From contig JAUPKX010000007.1 of the NCBI GenBank assembly GCA_030837225.1, positions 65,182-129,181 on the forward strand: 64,000 nucleotides of DNA. The letters run 5' to 3'. Numbering within the stretch: position 1 is the stretch's first letter; each line of letters begins with the position of its first letter. This document shows, in pieces, positions 15,767 through 64,000 of this stretch. The DNA comes from Patescibacteria group bacterium. GTDB lineage: Bacteria; Patescibacteriota; Minisyncoccia; Phycocordibacterales; Phycocordibacteraceae. The notes below the pieces were generated by a model that was not told where the DNA came from, searched no databases, and saw nothing but the letters and a program-made list of their open reading frames with translations. A program made the translations under genes and the position numbers.

Positions 15767-15847
15767 TGTCTTCTAGATTGCATCAATAGAACACTGTCGA
15801 TCGTGGATGCGCTTCGCTCTTATCTGCAGGCAAACCGTGTAATCGTG

Positions 15848-16167
15848 TTGCGGGGGCCGGAATCGAACCGGCGTCTGGAGGTTCTTTTACACCTACTGTT
15901 TCCAGAAGGAATGGACTATACCATGATCCTGAACCAGGATCCTCCCATTATAGTCTCTGAACCTTTCCCGGAAAATTCCGAGACTTGGCTGCTGATTGCC
16001 GAATCTTCTTGTTTTTCAAGCATTCACGCTCATCCTTTCGGATCACGTTGTAGCACAAGAAGCTCTAACGGTATTCCAGCAATTTAGAGAGTTTTTCCAC
16101 TACCCGTTACCGGATAGGGTCACGTTGTTCACATGAGCCTCCCGAGGTACCTCTCCTCTACCCCGCT
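15848..16167 (-). tRNA. tRNA(CAT), likely initiator-type Met, interrupted by a group I intron (exons 16133..16167 and 15848..15883)
   Basis: Joined exons give AGCGGGGTAGAGGAGAGGTACCTCGGGAGGCTCAT|AACCTCCAGACGCCGGTTCGATTCCGGCCCCCGCAA. This folds as a canonical cloverleaf: 7-bp acceptor with unpaired A1/A72, U8, D-stem GAGG/CCTC with A11:U24, anticodon stem GGAGG/CCTCC, loop CTCATAA, T-arm GCCGG-TTCGATT-CCGGC. No CCA is encoded. Confidence 0.75.
15884..16132 (-). mobile_element. 249-nt ORF-less group I self-splicing intron in the tRNA(CAT) anticodon loop, between the anticodon and position 37
   Basis: Contains the conserved group I core elements R (GTTCAGAGACTATAA) and S (ATGGTATAGTCC), giving P7 GACTA/TAGTC. 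U at the 5' splice site, terminal G at the 3' splice site, and a candidate P1 guide (GTGACCC) pairing with the exon GGCTCAT. Confidence 0.7.
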
Positions 16168-35991: not shown

Positions 35992-36030
35992 TAGTGTCTC
36001 TCTTCTTAAACTGAACGGTATACTGAGCCT

Positions 36031-38211
36031 ATGAAGCCTGAGGATCTTATCTCAATCCATTTCACCCGCCTCAAGCCTGATCAGAAGAAAGCACTGGAGA
36101 AGCTCGGCATCAAAACGATTAAAGACCTCTTGTATCACTTCCCTGCCCGCTACGAGGCAGCGGGACCAACCGGTACTATTGGCAGCGCAACATCCGGAAG
36201 CGAGGTGACGTTGTACGGCACCATCAGGAAGCCAGAAGCGAAGAAATCATGGACCACGAAGCGTCCTATGGGAGAGGCATGGCTTGAGGACGCTTCGGGG
36301 CGAATGAAACTGCGCTGGTTCTCGCAGCCGTACATCGCTAAATCTCTCAAGGACGGCATGGTGGTAAAGGCGAGCGGCAAGATAACCGGAACGGGTGACA
36401 AAATCTATCTCGCAAACCCAGAGATCGATCGCTCTCCTATAAATCCCGAGGAAGTGCACGATTCACTCTTTACTGATACCGAAAACCTTGGTGGTGCACT
36501 CATTGAAGACACGCTCTACGCAATCTATCCTGAGTCGAAAGGTGTTTCCTCACTCTGGTTCCTACATGCACTGAAGCACGTATTCGAAGCGGGCGTACAT
36601 GAGCGTCTTCCAGACCCCATTCCAAAGGAGATGCTTGATCGCTACAGTTTACCGACACTCGCAACCGCACTCATCTGGATGCATGCACCAAGAAAGCTGC
36701 CTGCCTCGCAAGCCGCGCGAAAGCGCTTTGCGTTTCAGGAGGTCCTTGCTATTCAGTTAACGACGCAGCGCCGTAGACTCGAAGCAACGAAAGAACGAGC
36801 CCTTCCTGTGCACGCGGACCGCGCGTCCCTCAAAGCGTTCATGGATTCATTCCCGTTCCCGCCAACAGATGCCCAGGCACGCTCCATAGAGAGCATCGTC
36901 GCAGACTTCGAGAAACCACACCCAATGAGGAGGCTTCTTGAAGGCGACGTAGGCAGCGGAAAGACTGCAGTAGCTGCAGCAACGGCGTATATGGTTGCGA
37001 CATCTCGTCCGCCCGGCCGTGTTGCGGGTACTCTCCAGGTTGCGTATATGTGTCCAACGGAGATTCTTGCAAAGCAACACTTCTCAACCTTTGTTTCGTA
37101 TTTCAAAGACCATCCGATTCCCATTGGTCTCATAACCGGCAATGAGTGCCGCAAATTCCCGGCTAAGGTTCGGTATGAAGAATCGGCTAAGGTGTCGCGT
37201 GCACAGTTCTCAAAATGGGTAGCCAACGGCGAGATTCCGATTGTTATCGGCACGCATGCGCTTGTCTACAAATCCTTGGCCTTTCAGAATCTCGCATACG
37301 CAATTATCGACGAGCAGCATCGCTTCGGGAAGGCGCATCGCCAAAAGCTCACCAAGAAAGATGGCGCGCTCTCGCCCCACCTTCTTTCTATGACGGCGAC
37401 TCCTATTCCCCGTACCCTCGCCCTTTCGATATATGGAGACCTCGACCTCTCGCTCCTTGATCAGATGCCGCTCGGGCGAAAACCAATCATCACGGAAGTG
37501 CTCGGTCCTGAGAAACGCGAGAAAGCATATGAACGTGTGAGAGCAGAGCTTGCGCTCGGGCATCAGGCCTATGTTATCTGCCCGCGTATTAACGAGCCTG
37601 ATCCTCAGAAGGAATTCGCGGTGCAGGCGAAGTCCGTAAAAGCAGAAGCAGAGCGATTGAAGCTGAACGTGTTCCCGGACGCTTCAATCGACATCCTGCA
37701 CAGCAAGATGACGCCGAAGGACAAGGAGTCAGTGATGAAACGTTTCGAAGATGGTCAGGTGCAGATTCTTGTTGCAACCTCTGTAGTTGAAGTGGGTGTG
37801 AACGTCCCGAACGCAACCGTGATTCTTATTGAAGGCTCTGAGCGCTTTGGTCTCGCGCAATTGCATCAGCTTCGTGGCCGCGTAATTCGCTCAAGCAACC
37901 AGGCATACTGCTTCGCACTTCCGGAATCCTATGGTCCCGCGACCAAGGAACGCCTTACCGCCCTCACAACCGCAAAAAACGGCTTCGAGCTTGCTGAGTA
38001 CGATCTCGCACTTCGAGGCGCTGGCGAGCTCTATGGTGCACGCCAATGGGGTGTGTCGGATATTGCTATGGAGGCACTCAAGAATATAAAGATGGTAGAG
38101 GCCGCACGGAATGAGGCCCAGGAACTCGTGAAGAAGGATCCGGAACTCAAGAAGCATCCACTCTTAGCGAAGCTTGCGAAAGACGCGGACGAAGAGGTGC
38201 ATCCTGAGTAG
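36031..38211 (+). CDS. recG: ATP-dependent DNA helicase RecG
   Basis: Wedge domain plus SF2 helicase motifs (DVGSGKT, DEQHRFG, TATPIPRT), 726 aa. Confidence 0.9.
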   Translation: MKPEDLISIHFTRLKPDQKKALEKLGIKTIKDLLYHFPARYEAAGPTGTIGSATSGSEVTLYGTIRKPEAKKSWTTKRPMGEAWLEDASGRMKLRWFSQPYIAKSLKDGMVVKASGKITGTGDKIYLANPEIDRSPINPEEVHDSLFTDTENLGGALIEDTLYAIYPESKGVSSLWFLHALKHVFEAGVHERLPDPIPKEMLDRYSLPTLATALIWMHAPRKLPASQAARKRFAFQEVLAIQLTTQRRRLEATKERALPVHADRASLKAFMDSFPFPPTDAQARSIESIVADFEKPHPMRRLLEGDVGSGKTAVAAATAYMVATSRPPGRVAGTLQVAYMCPTEILAKQHFSTFVSYFKDHPIPIGLITGNECRKFPAKVRYEESAKVSRAQFSKWVANGEIPIVIGTHALVYKSLAFQNLAYAIIDEQHRFGKAHRQKLTKKDGALSPHLLSMTATPIPRTLALSIYGDLDLSLLDQMPLGRKPIITEVLGPEKREKAYERVRAELALGHQAYVICPRINEPDPQKEFAVQAKSVKAEAERLKLNVFPDASIDILHSKMTPKDKESVMKRFEDGQVQILVATSVVEVGVNVPNATVILIEGSERFGLAQLHQLRGRVIRSSNQAYCFALPESYGPATKERLTALTTAKNGFELAEYDLALRGAGELYGARQWGVSDIAMEALKNIKMVEAARNEAQELVKKDPELKKHPLLAKLAKDADEEVHPE

Positions 38212-39163: not shown

Positions 39164-39240
39164 GCACCCTTAGCTCAGTTGGTTAGAGCACGGAGCTTAT
39201 ACCTCCGCGGTCCTTGGTTCGAGTCCAAGAGGGTGCACCA
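39164..39240 (+). tRNA. tRNA-Ile with rare anticodon TAT (UAU; decodes AUA), CCA encoded
   Basis: GCACCCTTAGCTCAGTTGGTTAGAGCACGGAGCTTATACCTCCGCGGTCCTTGGTTCGAGTCCAAGAGGGTGCACCA. Anticodon stem CGGAG/CTCCG, loop CTTATAC. Confidence 0.8.
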
Positions 39241-39642: not shown

Positions 39643-41577
39643 CTAGATCGACACGTCTTCCTCTTCCTTCTTCTTTGGCGTTATGCCGTTTGCTATGAGG
39701 ATAGTCTCGAATTCTTCGCGCTCAAGCGTCTCAACCTCAACGAGGCGATTGGCGATAGCATCAAGCGCCTTGCGGTGCTCTTCAAGCACAACACGAGCAC
39801 GTCCCTTAGCGTCGTCGATAATGCGCGCTACCTCTGCGTCAATCTTTGACGCAATCTCCTGAGAGTACATCGCGTCTCCATACGCGCGGTCTCCTGCGTA
39901 TGCAACAGGGCCCAAGATGTCGCTCATACCGTACCGAGACACCATGTCGCGAGCTAAGGCTGCCACAACCGCAAGATCGTTCGAAGGACCAGTGGTAAGA
40001 TCGCCATAGATCATCTCTTCTGCGACGTAGCCGCCAAGGGTTGTGGCAATGTCGTCGAGGAATGTCTTCCGAGACTGCATGCGCTTGTCGTCAAACGGAA
40101 GCTTGAGTGTGTAGCCTGCAGCACGTCCACGGCTGATGATCGAAATCTTATGAATTGGATCAGAGTGCTCGAGCACAGAACCAACGAGGGCGTGCCCTGC
40201 CTCGTGATATGCGGTTAGGCGCTTCTCCTTCTTTCCAAGAAGATGACTCTTTCGTTCTGGACCAAGCATAACCTTCTCGATAGAGCGGATGAGATCATAC
40301 TGGGTAATCTCCTTTCGATTCTCGCGAGCGGCGAGGATTGCACCCTCGTTCATAAGTGAGTAGAGCTCGGCACCGGAGAATCCAGGGGTACGCTCCGCAA
40401 TCACATCGAGTGCAACGTCAGGACCAAATGGCTTTTTGCGCGCATGCACGGTAAGAATCTCGAGACGGTCCTTGCGATCAGGAAGATCAATCGTAACGCG
40501 TCGGTCAAAGCGTCCTGGACGAAGGAGTGCTGGGTCGAGCACGTCAGGGCGGTTCGTTGCCGCCATAACGATAACTTTCTCTGTCGGATCGAATCCATCC
40601 ATCTCAACAAGAATCTGGTTGAGCGTCTGTTCACGCTCGTCATTCCCGCCGCCAACACCCGTACCACGCACACGTCCAACCGCATCGATCTCGTCAACAA
40701 AGATAATGGATGGCGACGTCTTCTTAGCCATGAGGAATAGGTCTCGCACCCTTGAAGCCCCCACACCGACAAACATCTCAACGAACTCAGAACCTGAGAT
40801 GGAGAAGAACGGTACGCCTGCCTCGCCAGCAACTGCGCGCGCAAGCAAGGTTTTTCCAGTACCCGGTGCACCCATAAGGAGAATACCTTTCGGGATACGC
40901 GCACCAATATCAAGAAACTTCTTCGGGTTCTTCAAGAAGTCCACAATTTCAAGAAGCTCTTCTTTTGCTTCCTTGGCACCCGCAACATCAGAGAAGAGCA
41001 CACGCTGATTGGTATCAGCCGGATCAATCATGCGTGCCTTAGACTGTCCGAAGGAAAATGCCTGCATACCGGCCCCGCGTACCTGGCGCGTGAGGAACCA
41101 AAAGAGAATACCGAGGAAGAGGATCGGAAGAAGGATTGGGGCGAGGTTAAAGAACCAGTACTTGAATCCAGACTCGCTCTCAACCGTAACGTTCACGGCC
41201 GTGAGTTGCTCGGGTGTAACGCCGTATGCGGCCAAAGTCTCCGGAAGTGCCGCTTCGGGATCCTTCATGGCCTTCTTCTCGGTCCCGTCCGCGTATGTAA
41301 GGACGAGCTCGTTCCCGTTGATGTGAATCTCAGAGACAGTGCCGGCCTTCACGTCACCTGCTACCTGCGACAGGGAGAGCGGGTCCTGCTTCTCGCCCTG
41401 CCCCGTTATGAGCGAGTAGAGGCTCGTAAGGATAATAAGGACAAGAACCGTAGATAGGAGGTTTACGGTGAATCCCCCGCCGGCTCCCGGCATCTGAATA
41501 CCCCTCTTTCCTGGTAACTTCTTCACTCCCTTCTTCTCTGGCGCGGGCTTTCCGGCCGGTTTCTTGGTAGGTGCCAT
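39643..41577 (-). CDS. ftsH: ATP-dependent zinc metalloprotease FtsH
   Basis: AAA Walker [17 protein letters not shown] zinc motif. Start uncertain: the ORF extends to 41637, and Met at 41577 was chosen. Confidence 0.9.
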
Positions 41578-42154: not shown

Positions 42155-42561
42155 GGGGGTGACCGGCTTTGACGGTCCTGTACTTTGAGAGACGTGCGAC
42201 GCGGTGGAAGGATACTGACCACCTAAAAACGTATTCAATCAAACTTGCCAAGAACACTCTTGCAAGCGTAAAGTCGCCTTACTTCGGTAAGAAGGATTTT
42301 GCGTTCGCTTACGCGTAAAAGCTTCGCGCTTTCGCCTAAGCGACGTTCATACATCTCCGTTTCTTCAGGGAGTTGTATGGGCGGAATCTTCTGAAGAATC
42401 GGTATCGAGAGCCTCCCTGCCTTCGGCCTAAAAGATGGGACTAGGCAGAAGTGTTTTGGCTAACGTTCCTATGCTCCTGCTGAACCCTCAACGTTAGCTA
42501 CGCGTCGTAGACTCGCTCTTAAAGCAGGATTCGGACCGGAGTTCAACTCTCCGCACCTCCA
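42155..42561 (+). ncRNA. ssrA: transfer-messenger RNA (tmRNA, ssrA), about 407 nt, CCA not encoded
   Basis: 5' GGGGGTGACCGGCTTTGACGG resembles the tmRNA 5' consensus (GGGGCUGAUUCUGGAUUCGACGG). 3' T-arm CGGAG-TTCAACT-CTCCG plus acceptor CACCTCC-A. The acceptor includes a G3:U70 wobble pair, the alanine identity element. Lies immediately downstream of smpB. Confidence 0.7.
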
Positions 42562-42562
42562 C

Positions 42563-42607
42563 ATATAGAAACTATAAAACCGCCCTCTGGGCGGTTTTAT
42601 AGTTTCT
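42563..42607. terminator. 20-bp perfect inverted repeat terminator (bidirectional) after ssrA
   Basis: tagaaactataaaaccgccc-tctg-gggcggttttatagtttcta. Confidence 0.6.
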
Positions 42608-55655: not shown

Positions 55656-56057
55656 CTAGCCCCAGGAGACCATTAAGCCCGGCTGGGCGCCGTGGGAGTC
55701 GCCCCCGTCTGCCTGTACTGAGAAGCCTTCTGCCTGAAGGAACTCGGTAAGCGCTGCAACGAGGGTTTGTTCTTGGTAGTCTTCGAGCCCATCCGTGTCG
55801 TCGTAAATTCTGAACGTTGCTGACGGCAGGAATGCCCTTGAATTGCCGTCCTCGGCAGCATCCATAAGAGTCGATTTGAAGTGATTGGTATACGTAAATC
55901 GAATAGTGCGCCGTATTTCCCTTGCCACCGTTTCTTTCTTATTTCGGACACGTTCTGCCTCGGCAAGAACACGTTGTGTGCATTCCCGAAGTAATGCAGC
56001 TTCAGTTTTTCTCCGGCCCATATCCTTCTCCTGGCTAGTAACCTCTTCCTGCAGCAA
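55656..56057 (-). CDS. hypothetical protein inserted in the spc ribosomal operon between rplE and rpsN
   Basis: 133 aa ORF bracketed by hairpins on both sides; basic helical N-terminus and acidic C-terminal domain; no recognisable family. Confidence 0.5.
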   Translation of the reverse strand: MLQEEVTSQEKDMGRRKTEAALLRECTQRVLAEAERVRNKKETVAREIRRTIRFTYTNHFKSTLMDAAEDGNSRAFLPSATFRIYDDTDGLEDYQEQTLVAALTEFLQAEGFSVQADGGDSHGAQPGLMVSWG

Positions 56058-56121
56058 ACACTAATAGAGTCCTTAGGTCAAGAATCGTAGAGGCACGAGG
56101 AATATCTTTTCGCATTAGCAT

Positions 56122-56149
56122 CAAGAAAAAAGCCCGCGCGCGGCGGGCT
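56122..56149 (-). terminator. rho-independent terminator downstream of rplE
   Basis: Minus strand reads agcccgc-cgcgc-gcgggct followed by TTTTTTCTTG. Confidence 0.65.
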
Positions 56150-56170
56150 GTTTTCTTGGTGAAACTAAGA

Positions 56171-56707
56171 TTACTCAGCGTCCTTCTTGAACGGAATCCC
56201 GAGGTGGCGGAAGAATGCGTCTGCCTCCTCCTTGGTCTTCGCAGTTGTCACAAGCGTAATCGCGAGACCAAATACGTCCTTAAGGTCCTCTTCAGCGGTC
56301 TCCGGGAAGATCGTGTGGTCCTTGATACCGATAGTGAGGTTACCCATCTCATCAATCGCGGTTGCGTTAAGTCCACGGAAGTCGCGCGTACGAGGAAGCG
56401 TGATGTGGATGAGCTTCTCGAGGAACTCATTCATACGAGCGCCACGAAGCGTAACCTGGTACCCCACGATGTCTCCTTCACGCATCTTGAACTGTGCGAT
56501 GGATTGCTTGGCCGGACGTGCGGATGCCTTCTGGCCTGTGATACGAGCAAGACGGCTCTCAACGAGTGCCTTCTTCGCCTTGTCTGCCTTTCCAACACCG
56601 GACGAAACCGTAATCTTGAGGAGCTTCGGAGAAGCATTCACGTTCGTGTAACCGAACTTCTCCTTGAGAGTTTCGAATGCGCTAACCTGCTTTTCTTTAG
56701 TGATCAT
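56171..56707 (-). CDS. rplE: 50S ribosomal protein L5
   Basis: Conserved L5 sequence (FRGLNATAIDEMGNLTIGIKDHTIFPE). Confidence 0.95.
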   Translation of the reverse strand: MITKEKQVSAFETLKEKFGYTNVNASPKLLKITVSSGVGKADKAKKALVESRLARITGQKASARPAKQSIAQFKMREGDIVGYQVTLRGARMNEFLEKLIHITLPRTRDFRGLNATAIDEMGNLTIGIKDHTIFPETAEEDLKDVFGLAITLVTTAKTKEEADAFFRHLGIPFKKDAE

Positions 56708-56717
56708 ACTGAAATCG

Positions 56718-57062
56718 TTATGCGAGGGTAGTACCGCTCTTTACGGAGATACGTACGTTCTTGCCGTCCTTGTTAGCCTCGCGCTTCACGCGAGTACCCT
56801 TCTTCTCCTTTGGGTCGTAGAACATGACGTTCGAGATTGCGATAGCTGCAGGCTTCTCGACAATGCGTCCAGTCTGGCCGCGAAGTCCGCGGTTGTGACG
56901 CTTTACGAGTCCAACACCTTCAACAACAATCTTCGCATCCTCGCGAAGAATCTTCTCGACGGTTCCCGTCTTACCCTTGTCCTTGCCAGAGATAACGACA
57001 ACGGTGTCGCCTTTCTTCAACTTAAACTTTGCGGTCTGCTTTCCTTGAGTTGCCTTAGACAT
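56718..57062 (-). CDS. rplX: 50S ribosomal protein L24
   Basis: KOW motif KLKKGDTVVVISGKDKGKTGTV. Confidence 0.95.
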   Translation of the reverse strand: MSKATQGKQTAKFKLKKGDTVVVISGKDKGKTGTVEKILREDAKIVVEGVGLVKRHNRGLRGQTGRIVEKPAAIAISNVMFYDPKEKKGTRVKREANKDGKNVRISVKSGTTLA

Positions 57063-57073
57063 AGAAATAGAGA

Positions 57074-57451
57074 TTAGACGACTTCAGGCGCGATAGACGC
57101 GATGTTCTGCCAGCCCTTATCAACGAGGTCGCGAGGAACAGGACCGAAGACACGGTTACCCTTAGGACCCATCTCCTTACCCTGCTTCTCAATGAGGACA
57201 ACAGCGTTGTCATCAAAGCGAACATAGATACCGGACGCACGGCGGAACGCCTTGCGCTGGCGAACCACAACCGCCTTGTAGATATCCTTCTTCTTAACCG
57301 CCTTGCGAGGCTCTGCGGACTGGATGGATACAACCACCACGTCGCCAATCTCAGCGTATCGCTTCTTCGAGCCACCAAGCACCTTGAAGACGCGTGCGAC
57401 TTTACCGCCTGAGTTATCTGTGACCGCTACGATTGACTGTGGCTGTACCAT
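57074..57451 (-). CDS. rplN: 50S ribosomal protein L14
   Basis: MVQPQSIVAVTDNSGGK... conserved L14 N-terminus. Confidence 0.95.
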   Translation of the reverse strand: MVQPQSIVAVTDNSGGKVARVFKVLGGSKKRYAEIGDVVVVSIQSAEPRKAVKKKDIYKAVVVRQRKAFRRASGIYVRFDDNAVVLIEKQGKEMGPKGNRVFGPVPRDLVDKGWQNIASIAPEVV

Positions 57452-57457
57452 AAATAA

Positions 57458-57706
57458 TTACTTTACGAGCGTGAATGACTTACGCTTCGACTTTGGCGCG
57501 CAGGCGACGATAGTAACCTGATCCCCTACCTTGGCAGTGTTGCCCTCGTCATGCACGAGGAACTTCTTGGTACGGGTCTGGTACTTCTTGTACTTCGGGT
57601 GCTTAACATAACGCGATACCGCAACGGTGATCGTGTCAGTCATGGCCGTCTTTACGACGGTTCCCTTGAAGGACTGAGGCTTTGCGGTTGTTGGTGTAGT
57701 TTCCAT
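57458..57706 (-). CDS. rpsQ: 30S ribosomal protein S17
   Basis: KGTVVKTAMTDTITVAV...HDEGNTAKVGDQVTI. Confidence 0.95.
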   Translation of the reverse strand: METTPTTAKPQSFKGTVVKTAMTDTITVAVSRYVKHPKYKKYQTRTKKFLVHDEGNTAKVGDQVTIVACAPKSKRKSFTLVK

Positions 57707-57710
57707 AAAT

Positions 57711-57908
57711 TTATGCGTTGTTCTTCTGCGCGGTCTGCTCAGTTAGAAGACGAGCGATGTCCTTTCGGACCTTCGAGAGCTGGGAAGCGTCCTTTGCGCG
57801 GCCACCAGCGGCGCTGAAGCGAAGAGAACGGAGCTCTTCACGCTTCTCGCCGAGGAGCTTTACAATCTCCTCTGCCTTCTTACCCTTGAATGAAAGTTTC
57901 TTAGCCAT
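57711..57908 (-). CDS. rpmC: 50S ribosomal protein L29
   Basis: 65 aa helical protein at the expected position; LRSLRFSAAGG motif. Confidence 0.9.
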   Translation of the reverse strand: MAKKLSFKGKKAEEIVKLLGEKREELRSLRFSAAGGRAKDASQLSKVRKDIARLLTEQTAQKNNA

Positions 57909-57912
57909 GATA

Positions 57913-58332
57913 TTAGCGGGTGATGACGGTTGTCTTCAAAGGAAGCTTTGAACCGGCGCGGCGAAGTGCGTCACGAGCCTTTGCATCGTCGACGCCATCG
58001 AGCTCGAAGAGGATGCGTCCTGGACGTACCTCGAACACGAAGTGCTTCGGGTCTCCCTTACCCTTACCCATGCCCACCTCAGCCGGCTTGTTCGTGATAG
58101 GACGATCCGGGAAGATGCGGATCCAGAGCTTGCCTCCCTTTCCGGTTACGCGAGTAAGCACCTTACGAGCAGCCTCGATCTGGTTTGAGGTTACACGAGA
58201 CGGAGTCGTTGCGCGAAGACCGTAGGAACCAAACGCAACGGTGATACCACGAGTATCAGGGCGCGCGAGCTTCTCCGGGGACTTTCGTCCGGTCTGCCAC
58301 TTGCGGTGCTTAACTTTCTTAGGGAATAGCAT
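57913..58332 (-). CDS. rplP: 50S ribosomal protein L16
   Basis: MLFPKKVKHRKWQTGR... conserved L16 N-terminus. Confidence 0.95.
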   Translation of the reverse strand: MLFPKKVKHRKWQTGRKSPEKLARPDTRGITVAFGSYGLRATTPSRVTSNQIEAARKVLTRVTGKGGKLWIRIFPDRPITNKPAEVGMGKGKGDPKHFVFEVRPGRILFELDGVDDAKARDALRRAGSKLPLKTTVITR

Positions 58333-58343
58333 GGTAGTGGGTA

Positions 58344-59057
58344 TTAGCGGCGAGGGCCGTTAGTGGTCGGGCGCTCAGACGCAGGACGAGTACCGCTCTC
58401 AGCGTTGAAAGTCTCACCGAGGTAGATCCAAACCTTGATACCAAGGAGTCCGTACGGGAGAAGTGCCTCAACGTGTGCGTAGTCGATGTTTGCACGGAAG
58501 GTCTGAAGCGGAATACGACCGCGCTTGATCTGCTCAGTACGGCTCATGTCAGCACCTCCGAGGCGTCCTGAGAGAACAATACGGACACCGATAACCTCGC
58601 GAACCGCCATAACCTTCTCAACGGTCTGCTTAAGCACGCGGCGGAATGGCATGCGCTTCTCGAGTCCTTCAGCAACCATGTAGCCAACAACTGATGCGGA
58701 GGTCTCCGGCTGGCGGATCTCCATGATGTCGAGCTTTACCGCACGCTTAGCGCCCGTTGCCTTTGAGTTGATGAGTGCCGTTACTTCGTTGCGAAGCTTG
58801 GTTGCGTTCTCGCCTGAGCGGCCGATAACGATACCAGGACGCGCAGTGTGGAGGATGACACGAACCTCACCCTGCGAGCGCTCGATCTCCATGTCGGCGA
58901 TGTGCATAGCCTTTGCGCGCTTCTTGAAGTAGCCACGGATAGCAGCATCAACCGCAATGTTCTCGCGGTAGGACTTCTTGTCGCCAGCAAACCAGCGGCT
59001 CTTCCAGTCACGGATGATGCCAAGGCGATGCGCGTACGGATGGACAGTGTGAGTCAT
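58344..59057 (-). CDS. rpsC: 30S ribosomal protein S3
   Basis: KH domain and conserved S3 C-terminal domain (GIKVWIYLGE). Confidence 0.95.
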   Translation of the reverse strand: MTHTVHPYAHRLGIIRDWKSRWFAGDKKSYRENIAVDAAIRGYFKKRAKAMHIADMEIERSQGEVRVILHTARPGIVIGRSGENATKLRNEVTALINSKATGAKRAVKLDIMEIRQPETSASVVGYMVAEGLEKRMPFRRVLKQTVEKVMAVREVIGVRIVLSGRLGGADMSRTEQIKRGRIPLQTFRANIDYAHVEALLPYGLLGIKVWIYLGETFNAESGTRPASERPTTNGPRR

Positions 59058-59062
59058 GGTAA

Positions 59063-59455
59063 TTACTTGGTGTCAGATGAAAGACGTACGAAAACTTGAG
59101 AACGGCGGCGGCGAATAGGTGCCGAACGACCCATAGCGCGTGGCATAGCACGGACGATCATACCTGCGGAGTCCACGCGGATCTCCGTAACCTTAAGGGT
59201 GTCCATGTCCTCTCCACGAGCCTTGGCAGTAGCCATTGCGGACTCGATGAGCTTCTTTATAGGAAGCGCAGCGCGCTTTGGGAGGAACTGAAGTGCGGCA
59301 ACAGCCTCCGAGACCTTCTTTCCCTTCACGAGCTCCGTAACGAGGCGCACCTTGCGGGGCGACTGGTTGTACGTGTCGATAGACGCGCGGATAGCCTTCT
59401 TTGCTTCCTCCTTGCGGATTGCGGCTGGCTGCTTGTGAGTTCCAGTAGAGGCCAT
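59063..59455 (-). CDS. rplV: 50S ribosomal protein L22
   Basis: Conserved L22 pattern (VSEAVAALQFLPKRAA...). Confidence 0.95.
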   Translation of the reverse strand: MASTGTHKQPAAIRKEEAKKAIRASIDTYNQSPRKVRLVTELVKGKKVSEAVAALQFLPKRAALPIKKLIESAMATAKARGEDMDTLKVTEIRVDSAGMIVRAMPRAMGRSAPIRRRRSQVFVRLSSDTK

Positions 59456-59457
59456 GA

Positions 59458-59805
59458 TTATTTCTTCTTAGGCGCAGCAGGTGCTGCCTTAGCGGCCTTC
59501 GCAGCAGCAATCTCAGCCTGCTGCTTCTTCTGCTCGAGCTGCTTCTGCATCTTTCCTCCGTGACGAGTGAACTTCTTGGTTGAGGAGAACTCTCCTAGGC
59601 GGTGACCAACCATCTCCTCAGTAACGAGGACATCTACGTGCTTCTGGCCGTTATGGACACCGAAGGTGAACCCAATGAACTCAGGAGCGATCTGGCTTGC
59701 CCGTGCCCACGTCTTAATAGCCGGTGTTGAACTCGGCTTCTTGTCCTGAACTTTCTTCAGGAGCTTGATATCGACGTATGGGCCTTTTTTAAGGGAGCGG
59801 GACAT
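59458..59805 (-). CDS. rpsS: 30S ribosomal protein S19 with Lys/Ala-rich C-terminal extension
   Basis: [12 protein letters not shown]... GHRLGEF... conserved S19; about 25 aa [22 protein letters not shown] tail. Confidence 0.95.
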
Positions 59806-59938
59806 AGATAGACAATGGAAAGCCCGCCAAGCGGGATAGATAGAATCTATAGGAAACGGGAGGAAGTGTCAAATTAATGGCTTGCGTGCTAGGGTTCCGG
59901 CAGACGTTCACACACACCACAATGAAGGAATACCCCTC

Positions 59939-60370
59939 ATGGCCCAAGAATCGAGCTTCAAAGCAGTCTTCTGGCATAGTTCACCGAGCAACCGCCCGGG
60001 CCAGCTCGGCATCGCTTCAAAAATAGAATTGCGATTTATGGATCACACCGGCTGTACGGCCGTTCTGGTTCAACAAATTGCCGGAATGAGTGAGAAAAGA
60101 CGTAATTTAGTCGAGACCCTGGCACATGACAGCCAAGGCTTTATAGGCCTTTTGCACCGCTTCCGTCTTTACCGCACCAGGCGAAAACTTAGGCGACTGT
60201 ATGGTCTCGCCATTCGGAGAATTTTGAATATTCTTCTCTATTCTCCGAAAGACTCGGAACAGGAGGTGCTGATTCTTCGCGACGATTGGGCTCCTGCGTC
60301 TGCCGCTGAGCGACGTGAAGTCGCAAGAAAGCTACGGGAAGCAACCAGGTTCTATGTTTACGCGTCGTAG
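59939..60370 (+). CDS. hypothetical Arg-rich protein (first gene of the cassette inserted between rpsS and rplB)
   Basis: RBS-like GAAGGAA upstream of ATG 59939; a plus-strand rho-independent terminator immediately follows the stop. No recognisable family; could alternatively be a non-coding transcript. Confidence 0.35.
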   Translation: MAQESSFKAVFWHSSPSNRPGQLGIASKIELRFMDHTGCTAVLVQQIAGMSEKRRNLVETLAHDSQGFIGLLHRFRLYRTRRKLRRLYGLAIRRILNILLYSPKDSEQEVLILRDDWAPASAAERREVARKLREATRFYVYAS

Positions 60371-60389
60371 AATCCAAAGATGCGCCTTC

Positions 60390-60419
60390 GGTCCCCGCAA
60401 TGCGGGGACCTTCTTTTTG
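60390..60419 (+). terminator. rho-independent terminator
   Basis: ggtccccgc-aatg-cggggacc followed by TTCTTTTTG. Confidence 0.6.
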
Positions 60420-60436
60420 CACGCTATACTATTTCT

Positions 60437-61255
60437 ATGATCGACTTCAACACCCCGAACGCTCGCCGCATGGAGGTCCTCGGCGTGGTTATTCTTGTAG
60501 GACTCGTGCTCGCCTTCACCGTCTGGTACATGGCCACCCATAAGGCCCCAGAGCCATACACAGGAATCCCTGTGGTAGCGACAACCACTCCAGAGGCGCT
60601 TCCACCAAAAGTCGTCGAGGAACACGGCCAGTACTTCGACATCGAAGTCTCCTACCCTGCTGAGACCGCCCTCAAGGCCTCTCTTGGAGCCGAAGCGGAC
60701 CTAGAGGCGGTTACGCTCATGGAGGACTTCGTTGAGGAGTCTGTGAGCGAATTCAAGAAGCAAGGAAACTTCGAGAACCTCACACCCGAAGACGTTCAGA
60801 TCATGGGACTCTCCGAGGATCGCAAGGAGAGCATCCAGATCGCATATGAGGAGATTAGGGGAGAAAATACTGTCTCCTACGTCTATGCCCTGTTCGTTGA
60901 TACGCTTGGCGCGCATCCGAACACCTTCTACCGCACCTTCACCTTCGACCTGAAGACAGGCGTGGAGCTCGATATCACAAGCCTCTTCGTTCCCCGCTCT
61001 GATTATCTCCGCCGTCTCTCTGCAATCTCTCAGTTTGAGCTCGCAAAGTCTTTGGGCGAATTCGCGGACGTCGAGTACATCGGCCAAGGCACTAAACCTG
61101 AGGCGCTGAACTTCCAGAGTTTCGTTATTGAAGACGACGAGCTCGTTCTCCTATTCCCTCCATACCAGGTTGCACCGTACGCAGCCGGCAGCCAGGAAGT
61201 ATCGATTCCGCTCGAGCAGCTCGAGGAGATCCTGAAGCCGGAGTATCAGCCCTAA
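60437..61255 (+). CDS. membrane-anchored DUF3298/DUF4163-domain protein (RsiV/PdaC-like extracytoplasmic domain)
   Basis: N-terminal TM anchor then a domain with the DUF3298-type motif FVDTLGAHPNTFYRTFTFDL. Confidence 0.55.
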   Translation: MIDFNTPNARRMEVLGVVILVGLVLAFTVWYMATHKAPEPYTGIPVVATTTPEALPPKVVEEHGQYFDIEVSYPAETALKASLGAEADLEAVTLMEDFVEESVSEFKKQGNFENLTPEDVQIMGLSEDRKESIQIAYEEIRGENTVSYVYALFVDTLGAHPNTFYRTFTFDLKTGVELDITSLFVPRSDYLRRLSAISQFELAKSLGEFADVEYIGQGTKPEALNFQSFVIEDDELVLLFPPYQVAPYAAGSQEVSIPLEQLEEILKPEYQP

Positions 61256-61336
61256 GTAGCAGTGAGATTTTTACCTGGTAATTTCTTCTACGAGCGGTAC
61301 TATCATCTATATAGGTCTTTTCAGAGAGGTGTCACA

Positions 61337-61600
61337 ATGTCCCGCAACGAGAACGGAGTTGCTTACACAGTAACTGGAATCCGGCTCCATTCAATCGATC
61401 ACCTACAGAGAGCTTCTGCCGAAGCTGATGTCGATGGCTTAGACAAAACTATCAACGAATGGATTGCTCGGGCAAAAGATTCGCCCAGCGGATTCGGCGT
61501 TGGCTCACTCGTCTTTTTCGTAAAGGATAAAGACGGGGAAGAAGCAACCATATTCCTTTCAACAACTGAGGGAGAGCTCTTTCTAAGCGTTCCTGCTTAG
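61337..61600 (+). CDS. small hypothetical protein
   Basis: RBS AGAGAGG upstream of ATG 61337; 87 aa; bidirectional terminator follows. Confidence 0.4.
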   Translation: MSRNENGVAYTVTGIRLHSIDHLQRASAEADVDGLDKTINEWIARAKDSPSGFGVGSLVFFVKDKDGEEATIFLSTTEGELFLSVPA

Positions 61601-61620
61601 AACAATAAGCCAGAAAGACT

Positions 61621-61650
61621 GAGGGCCTCGCATTTGCGAGGCCCTTTCTT
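61621..61650. terminator. bidirectional rho-independent terminator between convergent small genes
   Basis: gggcctcgca-tt-tgcgaggccc followed by TTTCTT. Confidence 0.55.
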
Positions 61651-61954
61651 ATGCACCCTTCTCTTCGAGCTGTGTTATGCGTTGCTCGTGATCGAGCACC
61701 ATAACTGAGTCTGTATCAACCGCAGCGAGTGCTGATGTAAGATCATCCTGCACGTCAGCGATAGAAGCTTTGATTTTCTCCGTATTGCGCTCTAGCGTGC
61801 TTAAGCGAACCTCCACAGAATCGACTCGCTGGTTCACCGTGAGGACCGCATCTTTCACGCCATCTATTTTCTGATTAGTCAGCGACAATACCTCAAGCAC
61901 GTCATGCAACGTTGGCTCATGCTCGAACTCTGTTGGCGCGACGTTCTTAGACAT
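61649..61954 (-). CDS. hypothetical coiled-coil protein
   Basis: 101 aa, heptad-like helical composition; no recognisable family. Confidence 0.4.
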   Translation of the reverse strand: MSKNVAPTEFEHEPTLHDVLEVLSLTNQKIDGVKDAVLTVNQRVDSVEVRLSTLERNTEKIKASIADVQDDLTSALAAVDTDSVMVLDHEQRITQLEEKGA

Positions 61955-61984
61955 GCTTCTATACTACACCCATCCGGAGAGAAG

Positions 61985-62012
61985 CAAGAAACCCCGCTTT
62001 CGCGGGGTTTCT
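61985..62012 (-). terminator. rho-independent terminator downstream of rplB
   Basis: Minus strand reads gaaaccccgc-gaaa-gcggggtttc followed by TTGCTTC. Confidence 0.6.
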
Positions 62013-62018
62013 CTTTGC

Positions 62019-62864
62019 TTATCGCTTCTTCCCAACCTTTCGGCGAGAGACGATGAACTTGTTTGAGTACTTCTTCGGTGTACGGGTCTTCTGTCCCTTA
62101 CCGGTCGGCTTGCCCCACATGGACTTTGCGCGGCGGAGACCACGTCCCTGCTTACCCTCACCACCTCCGTGTGGGTGGTCAACTGGGTTCATGGCAGTAC
62201 CACGAACGGTTGGACGGATACCCTTCCAGCGGCTCTTTCCTGCCTTTCCGTAGTTCTGAAGACGCTGCTCCTCGTTGCCAACGGCACCAACGGATGCCCA
62301 TGCGGACTCGATAACCTTACGGATCTCGGACGACGGCATCTTGATCTGCGCGTACCCCGCGTCATGCGCAACAATCTCAGCGTAGTTTCCAGCAGAGCGT
62401 GCGATACGTGCACCTGCTCCTGGACGAAGCTCTACATTGTAGATGAAGGTTCCAGAAGGAATCTTGCCGAGTGGAAGGCGGTTACCCGTCTTAATCGGTG
62501 CCTTCTCAGACACGATGAACGTGTCGCCCACCTTCATGTCCTTAGGGACCGTGACGTAACGGCGCTCTCCGTCTGCGAACACAACGAGTGCGATGAACGC
62601 AGTGCGGTATGGATCGTACTCAATAGTCTCAACGCGTGCTGGAATGTCGTGCTTGTTGTACTTAAAGTCGACATCGCGAAGGCGCTTCTTATGACCGCCA
62701 CCCTGGTGACGAGTTGTAATGCGTCCTGCATTGTTGCGACCTGCCTGATTCTTCTTTGAAGAAAGGAGTGCCTTGTGTGGCTTCACGCCAGGCGTAAGCA
62801 CGCCACGGTACGTGACGACGGTCATGCTGCGGCGAGATGCGGATGTTGGCTTGAAAGACTTCAT
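62019..62864 (-). CDS. rplB: 50S ribosomal protein L2
   Basis: MKSFKPTSASRRSM... and conserved C-terminal GGGEGKQGR motifs. An internal Met start was chosen; the ORF extends to 62897. Confidence 0.95.
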   Translation of the reverse strand: MKSFKPTSASRRSMTVVTYRGVLTPGVKPHKALLSSKKNQAGRNNAGRITTRHQGGGHKKRLRDVDFKYNKHDIPARVETIEYDPYRTAFIALVVFADGERRYVTVPKDMKVGDTFIVSEKAPIKTGNRLPLGKIPSGTFIYNVELRPGAGARIARSAGNYAEIVAHDAGYAQIKMPSSEIRKVIESAWASVGAVGNEEQRLQNYGKAGKSRWKGIRPTVRGTAMNPVDHPHGGGEGKQGRGLRRAKSMWGKPTGKGQKTRTPKKYSNKFIVSRRKVGKKR

Positions 62865-62874
62865 AGTAATCAGG

Positions 62875-63252
62875 TTATGCGAAGGTGATGGTGTCACCTG
62901 CCTTCAGGTACACGTAGGCCTTGTGGCGGCGTGCGCGGGTTCCCGTACCGCGACGAGTGCGGAGCGCTACCTTCTTTGCTGGAAGGTTAACCATACGGAC
63001 CTTCATCGGCGTTACCTTGTAGGCCGCGATGATAGCGTTCGCCACATCGATCTTGGTTGCGCTTGGAGACACCTCGAAGACGTACACACCATTCTCCGAA
63101 GAGATAAGTGCCTTCTCAGAGAACCAAGGGCGCTTCAGGATGTTCGCGAGGCGGTCGTCGCCAACCGGAAGGATGCCGCGACCCCAGTTACGGGTCTCAG
63201 ACTTAGCCTTCTTAGCCTTTGGTGTCTTCTTGTCGTTAGAGAAAAGTGCCAT
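62875..63252 (-). CDS. rplW: 50S ribosomal protein L23 (N-terminal extension)
   Basis: Conserved L23 core (YVFEVSPSATKIDVANAI...VRMVNLP). Confidence 0.9.
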   Translation of the reverse strand: MALFSNDKKTPKAKKAKSETRNWGRGILPVGDDRLANILKRPWFSEKALISSENGVYVFEVSPSATKIDVANAIIAAYKVTPMKVRMVNLPAKKVALRTRRGTGTRARRHKAYVYLKAGDTITFA

Positions 63253-63262
63253 ACAAGTAGTG

Positions 63263-63964
63263 TTATGCCTTCTTTGTTAGGCGAGCCGCAAGAATCGGAA
63301 GGGACTCGGAAGGATTCTCGATAACAAGGAACTTCTTGTTTACGAGATCAACCGGGTTCAGGTTACGAACCTCCTCGAGGGTAAGGCTACCAATGTTGCG
63401 GTAGGACTTCTCGCTCGTGGTGTCCTTCTTCGCGAACGCGAAGACGGCTGCGTTCTTGCGCTTGGTTGCGAGCTCAGCAACACCTGCACCCTTTGCGAGC
63501 GCTACAATCATGGCCTTAGCGTCTGCAGTCTTTGGTGTTGCGAACGCAAACGAGTCAACGAAGATAACCTGGCCATCGCGATGCTTCCTTGAAAGCACGG
63601 TTGCAAGTGCAGCAACACGCATCTTACGGTTGATCTTAACGGTGTAGTCCTTCTCAGCGCGTGGACCATGAGTCACACCTCCACCCTTCCAGATAGGAGA
63701 GCGAGTCGAGCCGTGACGAGCGCGTCCGGTTCCCTTCTGCTTCCAAGGCTTCTTGCCGCCGCCGGATACCTCTCCACGGAACTTGGTGTGTGCCGTTGTT
63801 GGGCGAGCGTTTGCCTGCATACCAATAACGACCTGGTGCACGAGATCAGAGTTCCACTTAACCCCGAAGAGCTCAGCAGGAAGAGAGACAGAACCTGCCT
63901 TCTCGCCCTTTCCGTTCCAAACGGTTGCCTCAAGAGACACCTCCTTAAGAGCGCTCTTAGGCAT
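63263..63964 (-). CDS. rplD: 50S ribosomal protein L4
   Basis: Conserved L4 pattern (KPWKQKGTGRARHGS). Confidence 0.95.
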   Translation of the reverse strand: MPKSALKEVSLEATVWNGKGEKAGSVSLPAELFGVKWNSDLVHQVVIGMQANARPTTAHTKFRGEVSGGGKKPWKQKGTGRARHGSTRSPIWKGGGVTHGPRAEKDYTVKINRKMRVAALATVLSRKHRDGQVIFVDSFAFATPKTADAKAMIVALAKGAGVAELATKRKNAAVFAFAKKDTTSEKSYRNIGSLTLEEVRNLNPVDLVNKKFLVIENPSESLPILAARLTKKA

Positions 63965-63967
63965 AGG

Positions 63968-64000
63968 AGCATCCTTCTTGACAGGAGCCTTCTTTGCGAC
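63968..64000 (-). CDS. rplC: probable 3' end of 50S ribosomal protein L3 gene (partial; frame not resolved)
   Basis: Gene order L3-L4-L23-L2 is expected. Only about 30 nt of Lys/Ala-rich coding sequence lie within the window. Confidence 0.3.

Follow-up and report, generated by a model that had tools for sequence, protein, structure and literature searches.

The S10-spc string of ribosomal protein (r-protein) genes is a textbook case of extreme gene-order conservation, and the question raised by the locus described here is how such a string comes to be cut, between rplB and rpsS, by four non-ribosomal genes. The locus belongs to an uncultured Paceibacteria genome of the candidate phyla radiation (CPR), of which a stretch of 64,000 nt was analysed (the window; all coordinates are window positions). 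The S10-spc cluster occupies the 3' end of the window, with every r-protein gene on the minus strand. The distance between rplB and rpsS is 2,213 nt (59806-62018), and the four open reading frames (ORFs) inside it, named orfA to orfD, are bounded by strong hairpin terminators; these GC-rich hairpins with T-tracts have folding energies of -20.6 to -26.8 kcal/mol and z-scores of -2.8 to -5.7 against shuffled sequences. A preliminary description of this DNA had reported a four-gene gap of 2.2 kb, a strong terminator after rplB, an Arg-rich protein with a terminator of its own, two small convergent ORFs with a bidirectional terminator, and hairpins bounding each inserted unit, and all of these were recovered (T1, T2 and T3 in Table 1). 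The evidence presented below indicates that the break is most probably an ancient, vertically inherited interruption of the S10 operon in a Paceibacteria/Parcubacteria clade of the CPR, including metagenome-assembled genomes (MAGs) labelled Kaiserbacteria.

A trivial origin of the arrangement, an assembly chimera at the rplB or rpsS junction, has a practically negligible probability. Contigs from four separate sequencing runs (SRR24011131, SRR24011158, SRR24011149 and SRR24011160), found through the 143-aa orfA product, match the window with 99.5-100% identity across as much as 8 kb (55939-64000) and span rpsS-orfA-orfB-orfC-orfD-rplB with both junctions; the same arrangement occurs in 58 other genomes from unrelated studies. 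The assembly error against which the preliminary description had warned is thereby excluded.

The distribution of the break was followed in one genome per GTDB species with rplB, the best 80 of 258 rplB relatives being taken as loci L001-L080. All are Paceibacterota, Parcubacteria, 'Kaiserbacteria' or Patescibacteria MAGs, their rplB is 72-100% identical to that of the window, and 64 of the 80 contain both rplB and rpsS. A homologue of orfB was found in the rplB-rpsS gap, antisense to the r-protein genes, in 58 of these 64 loci, with gap sizes of 0.9-4.0 kb; one rearranged locus among them also has a few accessory genes inverted. The recurrence of the same layout in so many related genomes places the rplB-orfB-rpsS order far from chance. 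The preliminary description had allowed that the insertion might prove universal and annotated in the lineage, and for the core gene orfB this largely holds, its homologues being named 'RsiV family protein', 'DUF3298 domain-containing protein' or 'hypothetical protein' by NCBI. The canonical spacing of about 80 nt was seen only in L060 (81 nt) and L077 (77 nt). Gaps without orfB measure 0.5-0.7 kb in L031, L073 and L075, and 1.1-2.5 kb in L028, L052 and L076, where other genes are present. Some of the MAG records sharing the orfB slot (L011, L015-L017, L019, L023-L025, L027, L029 and others; rplB 74-90% identical) are titled 'uncultured Candidatus Saccharibacteria bacterium', which looks like mislabelling.

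In a midpoint-rooted neighbour-joining tree of rplB, rpsS, rplV and rpsC (787 columns) the loci without orfB are nested among the carriers. The protein distances of orfB rise with those of the r-proteins (Mantel r = 0.49, 0/999 permutations), orfB diverging about 4-5 times faster and saturating near 60%. The ratio of non-synonymous to synonymous divergence (dN/dS) of orfB is 0.06-0.16 against the five closest genomes and 0.19 further out, that is, the gene is under purifying selection, and positive selection is not supported by these values. One ancient arrival of orfB, followed by vertical inheritance under purifying selection and several losses, appears to be the simplest reading, and it is held with moderate confidence.

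The transcription signals of the junction were conserved as well. The preliminary description had supposed that rpsS must restart from its own promoter 2.2 kb away; a putative promoter of its own was indeed recognized, TTGACA and TAGATT separated by 17 nt, and it lies only 67 nt upstream of the rpsS ATG, so that the supposed distance did not stand. This -35/17/-10 arrangement is present in 61 of the 64 loci, L077 with no insert included. The split of the operon, proposed in the same description, is thus physical, and sequence signals indicate that it would be transcriptional as well. About 8 nt after the promoter a small hairpin begins, followed by a U-rich leader in which no Shine-Dalgarno motif was found in the window. 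The block of promoter, hairpin and leader is alignable over 39 distinct sequences, both insert-free genomes included, the stem being nearly invariant and the loop variable. In this alignment 89.7% of the cells are paired; the predicted folding energy is -7.5 kcal/mol (z -1.2), and the weak covariation is uninformative because the stem hardly varies, so that conservation is what argues for the predicted hairpin. At the rplB side, a terminator-like hairpin with a T-tract lies 0-32 nt from the rplB stop codon in 57 of the 64 other insert-bearing loci scanned. The sequences of these terminators are unrelated between loci and their position is kept; a feature retained without sequence conservation is good evidence of function.

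It was also observed that the rpsS leader (UAUCCCGC-loop-GCGGGCUUUU...AUG; 59803-59850, minus strand; alignment A3) is almost invariant among genomes whose neighbouring genes share about 20% identity. Its role could be that of a stabiliser at the 5' end, of an attenuator, or of a site of r-protein autoregulation not recognised before. Rfam at the gathering score detected none of the known leaders or riboswitches, either in the rpsS/rpsN region or in seven loci with long leaders. In L046, L047, L049, L051, L063, L064 and L067 the rpsS promoter is situated 104-178 nt from the ATG, and in L039 at 93 nt; the extra length in L046, L047 and L049 consists of additional stem-loops set into the hairpin loop, and the long leaders of this type look like a larger structured leader.

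The same string is broken a second time in the window, between rplE and rpsN, where an ORF of 133 aa (orfE) is enclosed between two terminators (Table 1). The predicted rpsN promoter is identical in both elements and spacing to that of rpsS, and it is likewise followed after about 8 nt by a hairpin (-5.7 kcal/mol), a U-run and the ATG. This promoter and hairpin were found in 54 of 57 loci at any gap size; where only 51-80 nt separate rplE from rpsN, the -35 element overlaps the end of rplE. Across the relatives the rplE-rpsN gap ranges from 51 to 2,283 nt, and its contents are unrelated, mostly species-specific ORFs. No homologue of orfE was found, nor any conserved resident gene in the rplE/rpsN slot of the relatives. 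Since the rpsN design is kept whatever the gap holds, the internal promoters appear to be a lineage trait which is independent of the inserts.

The long-term resident of the rplB/rpsS slot, orfB, matches the Pfam family DUF3298 (PF11738; 58.0 bits against a cutoff of 24.1, E = 1.9e-15), a domain carried by all 120 orfB homologues listed; the DUF4163 Pfam model gave no match to orfB at E < 0.1. The alignment-based AlphaFold2 (AF2) model (mean predicted local distance difference test, pLDDT, 91.7) consists of a transmembrane helix (residues 7-34), a linker and an ectodomain of two domains, one DUF4163-like and the other DUF3298. A Foldseek comparison of this model with the PDB retrieved 3CYG (E = 2.6e-12), BF2082 (3S5T), the RsiV-lysozyme complex (5JEN, E = 6e-10), PA4972 (4E72), MPT64 (2HHI) and the N-terminal domain of SpPgdA; for 3CYG, 5JEN, 3S5T and 4E72 the values are 2.6e-12 to 3.3e-9 over 213-245 aligned columns, and with MPT64 included they extend from 1e-7 to 1e-12. 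A sequence profile search of the PDB retrieved the same proteins. The four structural neighbours listed for RsiV in the report of its structure (PMC5014341), shared here as 3CYG, 3S5T, 4E72 and 2HHI, are all among the fold matches of orfB. The earlier assignment as a membrane-anchored RsiV/PdaC-like DUF3298/DUF4163 protein therefore holds with respect to both fold and membrane anchor.

In the window a -10 element, TATACT (60425-60430), stands 6 nt before the presumed ATG of orfB. A TAnnnT hexamer, mostly TATACT, was found 6-9 nt before the ATG in 56 of 57 orfB genes, against a background of 6.5% for ATG codons in the same loci, a count which carries some selection bias, since each start was picked from the candidate codons that precede the transmembrane helix. 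These 56 homologues combine a -10 element at this distance with the lack of a Shine-Dalgarno motif, and such a position would imply a leaderless mRNA. The start of orfB is most likely ATG 60437 (272 aa), because this codon follows the orfA terminator and gives a protein of the length usual among the homologues (270-274 aa). Two more genes of the window show TATACT 6-9 nt before an ATG, namely a 726-aa ORF (36019-36033, plus strand) and a 664-aa ORF (41592-41575, minus strand), the true start of the latter being probably the internal ATG at 41577; with these examples leaderless expression seems to be recurrent in the genome.

The clustering of the gap ORFs showed everything other than orfB to be variable. 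Between rplB and orfB there is, according to the genome, an orfD-like gene (about 8 loci), a 2-oxoglutarate-Fe(II) oxygenase (11 loci), a HIT protein (6 loci), a NUDIX hydrolase, an HD phosphohydrolase, an S-adenosylmethionine methyltransferase, purC, or nothing; the interval from orfB to rpsS is either empty or occupied by a member of the orfA family or of the unrelated family F8 (6 loci). A kinase-like AAA_18 gene fills the slot of L075. Both purC and purE were noted in the slot of L076 (3176-4674), which has no orfB, and purC in that of L061 (10953-11918). This turnover is rapid. In the nearest species, L001 and L003, the flanking r-protein genes have 89-94% DNA identity to those of the window, and orfA, orfC and orfD are missing or replaced: L001 contains orfB alone in a gap of 1,015 nt and L003 orfB with an F8 gene, while L002 contains orfD, orfB and an orfA relative. 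Towards rplB, the homology of L001 and L003 to the window reaches precisely as far as the rplB terminator (61986); towards rpsS it reaches the -35 element (59873) in L001 and goes about 30 nt further (59905) in L003.

The orfA family comprises 11 of 65 loci, the window and 10 others; an iterative hidden Markov model tied orfA to ORFs of the same position with 16-23% identity and recovered no other positions. Their strand is that of orfB, with a single rearranged locus as the exception. The start of orfA is most likely ATG 59939 (143 aa), as the gene caller picked the same start and a Shine-Dalgarno-like AAGGA motif stands 8 nt upstream; a candidate extended -10 element is TGCTAGGGT (59887-59895), an instance of a TGnTAGGGT box that recurs in 22 loci. 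The protein has few database relatives and no match in Pfam, NCBIfam, PADLOC or PHROG. Its AF2 model, built from a shallow alignment of 5 sequences (pLDDT 79.6; the other four models 43-67), suggests with moderate confidence a beta-hairpin, a long helical hairpin and a small alpha/beta C-terminus, and no PDB match with E < 0.09 was given by Foldseek.

A search of 5.8 billion clusters with orfC returned only the identical 'hypothetical protein QG636_286 [Patescibacteria group bacterium]' of NCBI, which shows that the genome is a deposited MAG, and none of the 64 related gaps contains a homologue. The evidence for orfC as a real gene consists of the gene callers and a Shine-Dalgarno-like motif; it is probably co-transcribed with orfB, as there is no terminator between them. 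Homologues of orfD occur at the same position in L002, L004, L065 and L052, with weaker relatives in L033, L034 and L040, and belong to a family of coiled-coil proteins of 75-140 aa with 86 cluster representatives in a library of 1.84 billion proteins. Pfam, PHROGs and PADLOC gave only coiled-coil noise for orfD. Its candidate -10 element, TAGTAT (61966-61961), lies 6 nt before the ATG and would make this mRNA leaderless too.

Taken together, these data suggest that the S10-spc string is divided into three or more transcription units. The first, ending with rplD-rplW-rplB, would be stopped by the intrinsic terminator; the second, from rpsS to rplE, would be restarted by a near-consensus promoter of the sigma-70 type with a small 5' hairpin and a leader lacking a Shine-Dalgarno motif; and the third, beginning with rpsN, by a second promoter of the same design. 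The segment from the rplB terminator to the rpsS promoter would then be a transcriptionally insulated slot, in which orfB is directed away from rpsS, may be transcribed from its own TATACT element into a leaderless mRNA, and is convergent with rplB at a bidirectional terminator. The small genes around it, each with its own promoter and terminator, would turn over by gain, loss and replacement within short evolutionary distances. A restart promoter would remove polarity, and the junction could then tolerate insertions which bring or meet a terminator; this tolerance is suggested because the promoter-hairpin design is kept at rpsN regardless of the gap content.

Several points weigh against an ancient, single interruption with this organization. 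The taxonomic limits of the split are provisional, as they come from the best 80 of 258 rplB relatives, and the succession of one gain and several losses was read from a rough midpoint-rooted neighbour-joining tree without support values. The short gap with a promoter in L060 and L077 could equally be ancestral, in which case orfB would have been gained more than once. The synonymous divergence (dS) of orfB is 2-3 times that of the flanking genes, a difference which can come from the codon bias of r-protein genes or from occasional allelic replacement by recombination. The promoters, terminators and leaderless starts are consensus matches backed by conservation; the leader hairpins are small (z about -1.2 to -1.3), show almost no covariation, and could be conserved as a DNA site instead.

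The picture given by the preliminary description, one four-gene cassette placed in the operon, has to be abandoned in favour of a mosaic, in which orfB is an ancient resident and the other genes were separately acquired and are replaceable. A recent lateral acquisition of the four genes as a genomic islet or mobile element is quite improbable. It would account for the fact that three of the four genes are patchy or unique (orfC an ORFan, the orfA and orfD families confined to the few loci given above) and that the patchy genes each have a terminator of their own; however, orfB stands at the same site and in the same orientation throughout most of the clade with a divergence that tracks the r-proteins, which largely refutes a recent arrival of this gene, and the four genes do not travel together, as the different contents of L001, L002 and L003 demonstrate. 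Flanking direct or inverted repeats around the insert are at chance level only, no recombinase, integrase or transposase domain was found in it by Pfam, PHROG, PADLOC or NCBIfam, and its GC content of 0.48-0.56 shows no compositional shift against flanks of 0.53-0.58. A mobile element or genomic island was rejected on these grounds, as was a defence island or prophage remnant, PADLOC and PHROG having given only weak coiled-coil matches to orfD (E > 2e-4).

Two further explanations concern what orfB does in the slot. The RsiV fold of its ectodomain, the gene for a small basic protein directly upstream on the same strand, and the NCBI name 'RsiV family protein' of some homologues could be taken to indicate that orfA and orfB form a sigma/anti-sigma pair like SigV/RsiV, sensing lysozyme or another envelope stress. 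This is very improbable, and the proposal was rejected because two features that define such a pair speak against it. Like orfB, the lysozyme receptor RsiV, an anti-sigma-V factor found in Firmicutes (PDB 5JEN; PMC5014341), is a single-pass membrane protein with an extracytoplasmic DUF4163 and DUF3298 fold, but orfB, at 19-21% sequence identity, has no adjacent gene for an extracytoplasmic function (ECF) sigma factor and no cytoplasmic sigma-V-binding domain before its transmembrane helix, since so few residues precede it: the helix spans residues 7-34 of 272, and 2-25 residues stand before the predicted hydrophobic core in 56 homologues. For its part, orfA has no match to sigma-70 region 2 or 4 in Pfam or NCBIfam, its model has no PDB neighbour, the strong terminator T3 separates it from orfB, and it is absent from most orfB loci, most of which have no upstream partner at all. 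The score of orfB in the RsiV equivalog of NCBIfam is 27.2 bits, against a cutoff of 250. Lysozyme binding is also not general among DUF4163/DUF3298 proteins, as MPT64, with the same fold as RsiV, does not bind lysozyme (PMC5014341, PMC6553557). Further analogues may be MPT64 (Rv1980c), matched to orfB by both profile and fold searches, and Rv3036c of mycobacteria, which are exported DUF3298 proteins without a regulatory domain, as orfB appears to be from its model; unlike these secreted proteins orfB is predicted to be membrane-anchored, and although its best NCBIfam match is the Rv3036c-type esterase equivalog (NF043047, E = 1.7e-16), the score of 60.3 bits is far below the cutoff of 200. 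The model suggests that orfB is anchored in the membrane and binds a ligand on the extracytoplasmic side, as a protein of the cell envelope, and does not act as an anti-sigma factor. The label 'RsiV family protein' over-states what is known of its homologues and should not be propagated.

The other explanation is that orfB is kept beside rpsS for a functional reason, back-to-back promoters or antisense and convergent transcription coupling an envelope protein to ribosome synthesis or modulating the r-proteins. Its persistence in the slot throughout the clade while the neighbours turned over would agree with this, as would the distance of about 100-180 nt between the starts of orfB and rpsS in many loci, with promoters back to back, and a TGnTAGGGT box found 13-14 nt from the rpsS -35 element in 22 loci. 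However, at least 17 loci have an orfA-family or F8 gene between orfB and the rpsS promoter, and in those loci orfB keeps its own TATACT element directly upstream; the slot accepts unrelated housekeeping genes, several lineages lost orfB and kept the promoter, and the rplE/rpsN slot has no conserved resident. Simple inertia at a site where the gene is tolerated accounts for the conservation just as well, and functional coupling is considered unlikely. It is tempting to speculate, with the same reserve, that both junctions are stable 'landing pads' owed to internal promoters that are specific to the lineage and carry a conserved 5' hairpin leader, that the antisense DUF3298 protein was retained through expression coupled to ribosome synthesis as a growth-linked surface or host-interface factor of episymbiotic CPR bacteria, and that the invariant hairpin is a new r-protein autoregulatory leader; so elaborate a proposal is rather doubtful.

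The individual elements of the ancient interruption preferred here are all already known: internal promoters, intrinsic terminators, leaderless mRNAs and DUF3298 proteins. Internal promoters and terminators occur in long r-protein clusters, and stem-loops at the 5' terminus stabilise mRNAs such as ompA of E. coli and aprE of B. subtilis. The arrangement at rpsS and rpsN would resemble both, with an independent restart of transcription and a hairpin within a few nucleotides of the predicted 5' end; the positions of the breaks, rplB/rpsS and rplE/rpsN, differ from the classical S10/spc/alpha boundaries. Insertions of a few genes into translation-gene clusters, inherited by clades and later eroded, have been documented in Gammaproteobacteria and Bacilli (PMC8046335). 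The cases compared here likewise consist of few non-ribosomal, often housekeeping, genes in a conserved cluster, inherited within a clade and partly lost. They are situated mostly between operons (rpoBC/str and str/S10), with one inside rpoBC, whereas the present one is inside the S10 operon and in the CPR; unlike them, it has a conserved antisense resident, and the site stays connected, with gaps below 4.1 kb, while its accessory content turns over. A literature search, in which not all journals were covered, returned no description of a clade-wide rplB/rpsS break inside the S10 operon in CPR, of an antisense DUF3298 resident, or of a paired rplE/rpsN break with the same promoter-hairpin leader.

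No new molecular mechanism is revealed by these results; a famous synteny is violated. The S10-spc genes are standard markers for the binning and phylogeny of uncultured bacteria, and the order rplB, antisense DUF3298 gene, rpsS could serve as a synteny marker of the clade. A whole CPR clade with the string cut at rplB/rpsS and at rplE/rpsN offers a natural system for studying the harmless subdivision of an essential operon. The slots concentrate species-specific small genes beside very strong predicted promoters, and these genes are candidates for the lineage-specific biology of unculturable organisms.

Table 1. Features of the two interrupted junctions of the S10-spc cluster and of the adjoining genes, in window coordinates.
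Feature	Position	Strand	Remarks
rplD	63964-63263	minus	
rplW	63252-62875	minus	
rplB (L2)	62864-62019	minus	Pfam L2_N and L2_C; last gene of the predicted upstream r-protein transcription unit
T1, putative intrinsic terminator after rplB	61987-62012		A-tract/hairpin/T-tract, bidirectional type; -23.4 kcal/mol, z -5.2
orfD	61649-61954	minus	101-aa coiled-coil protein, accessory gene
T2, putative bidirectional terminator	61622-61645		common to convergent orfC and orfD; -25.5 and -26.8 kcal/mol on the two strands
orfC	61337-61600	plus	87-aa ORFan
orfB	60437-61255	plus	272 aa; DUF3298; conserved core gene
T3, putative terminator after orfA	60390-60410	plus	-20.6 kcal/mol
orfA	59939-60370	plus	143-aa Arg-rich accessory protein of a fast-evolving family
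Predicted rpsS promoter, TTGACA-17-TAGATT	59872-59844	minus	
rpsS leader hairpin, CCCGC-UUG-GCGGG	59835-59823	minus	at or near the 5' end of the predicted rpsS transcript
rpsS (S19)	59805-59458	minus	Pfam S19, E = 1.5e-31; first gene of the predicted restarted r-protein unit
rplV, rpsC, rplP, rpmC, rpsQ, rplN, rplX		minus	in this order after rpsS
rplE	56707-56171	minus	
Second gap, rplE/rpsN	56170-55545		
Putative terminator in rplE/rpsN gap	56149-56131	minus	
orfE	56057-55656	minus	133-aa ORFan
Second putative terminator in rplE/rpsN gap	55643-55618	minus	
Predicted rpsN promoter, TTGACA-17-TAGATT	55605-55577	minus	
rpsN hairpin, GGCUCC-CC-GGAGCU	55568-55555	minus	
rpsN	55544-55275	minus	
rpsH, rplF, rplR		minus	in this order after rpsN

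Some minor features of the window were also recorded. The S19 protein continues past its Pfam S19 domain with a C-terminal tail of about 30 aa in which Lys, Gln and Ala are frequent (59458-59550, minus strand). A tRNA gene with the anticodon CAU (about 15846-16166, minus strand) has its anticodon loop interrupted by a group I intron at 15892-16123 (Rfam RF00028, 68.7 bits), and this host tRNA was not called by ARAGORN. A tRNA-Ile with the anticodon UAU is located at 39164-39240 (plus strand); this tRNA is uncommon in bacteria, in which AUA is usually decoded by a lysidine-modified CAU tRNA. A tmRNA gene was identified at 42155-42564 (plus strand; RF00023, 96.4 bits).

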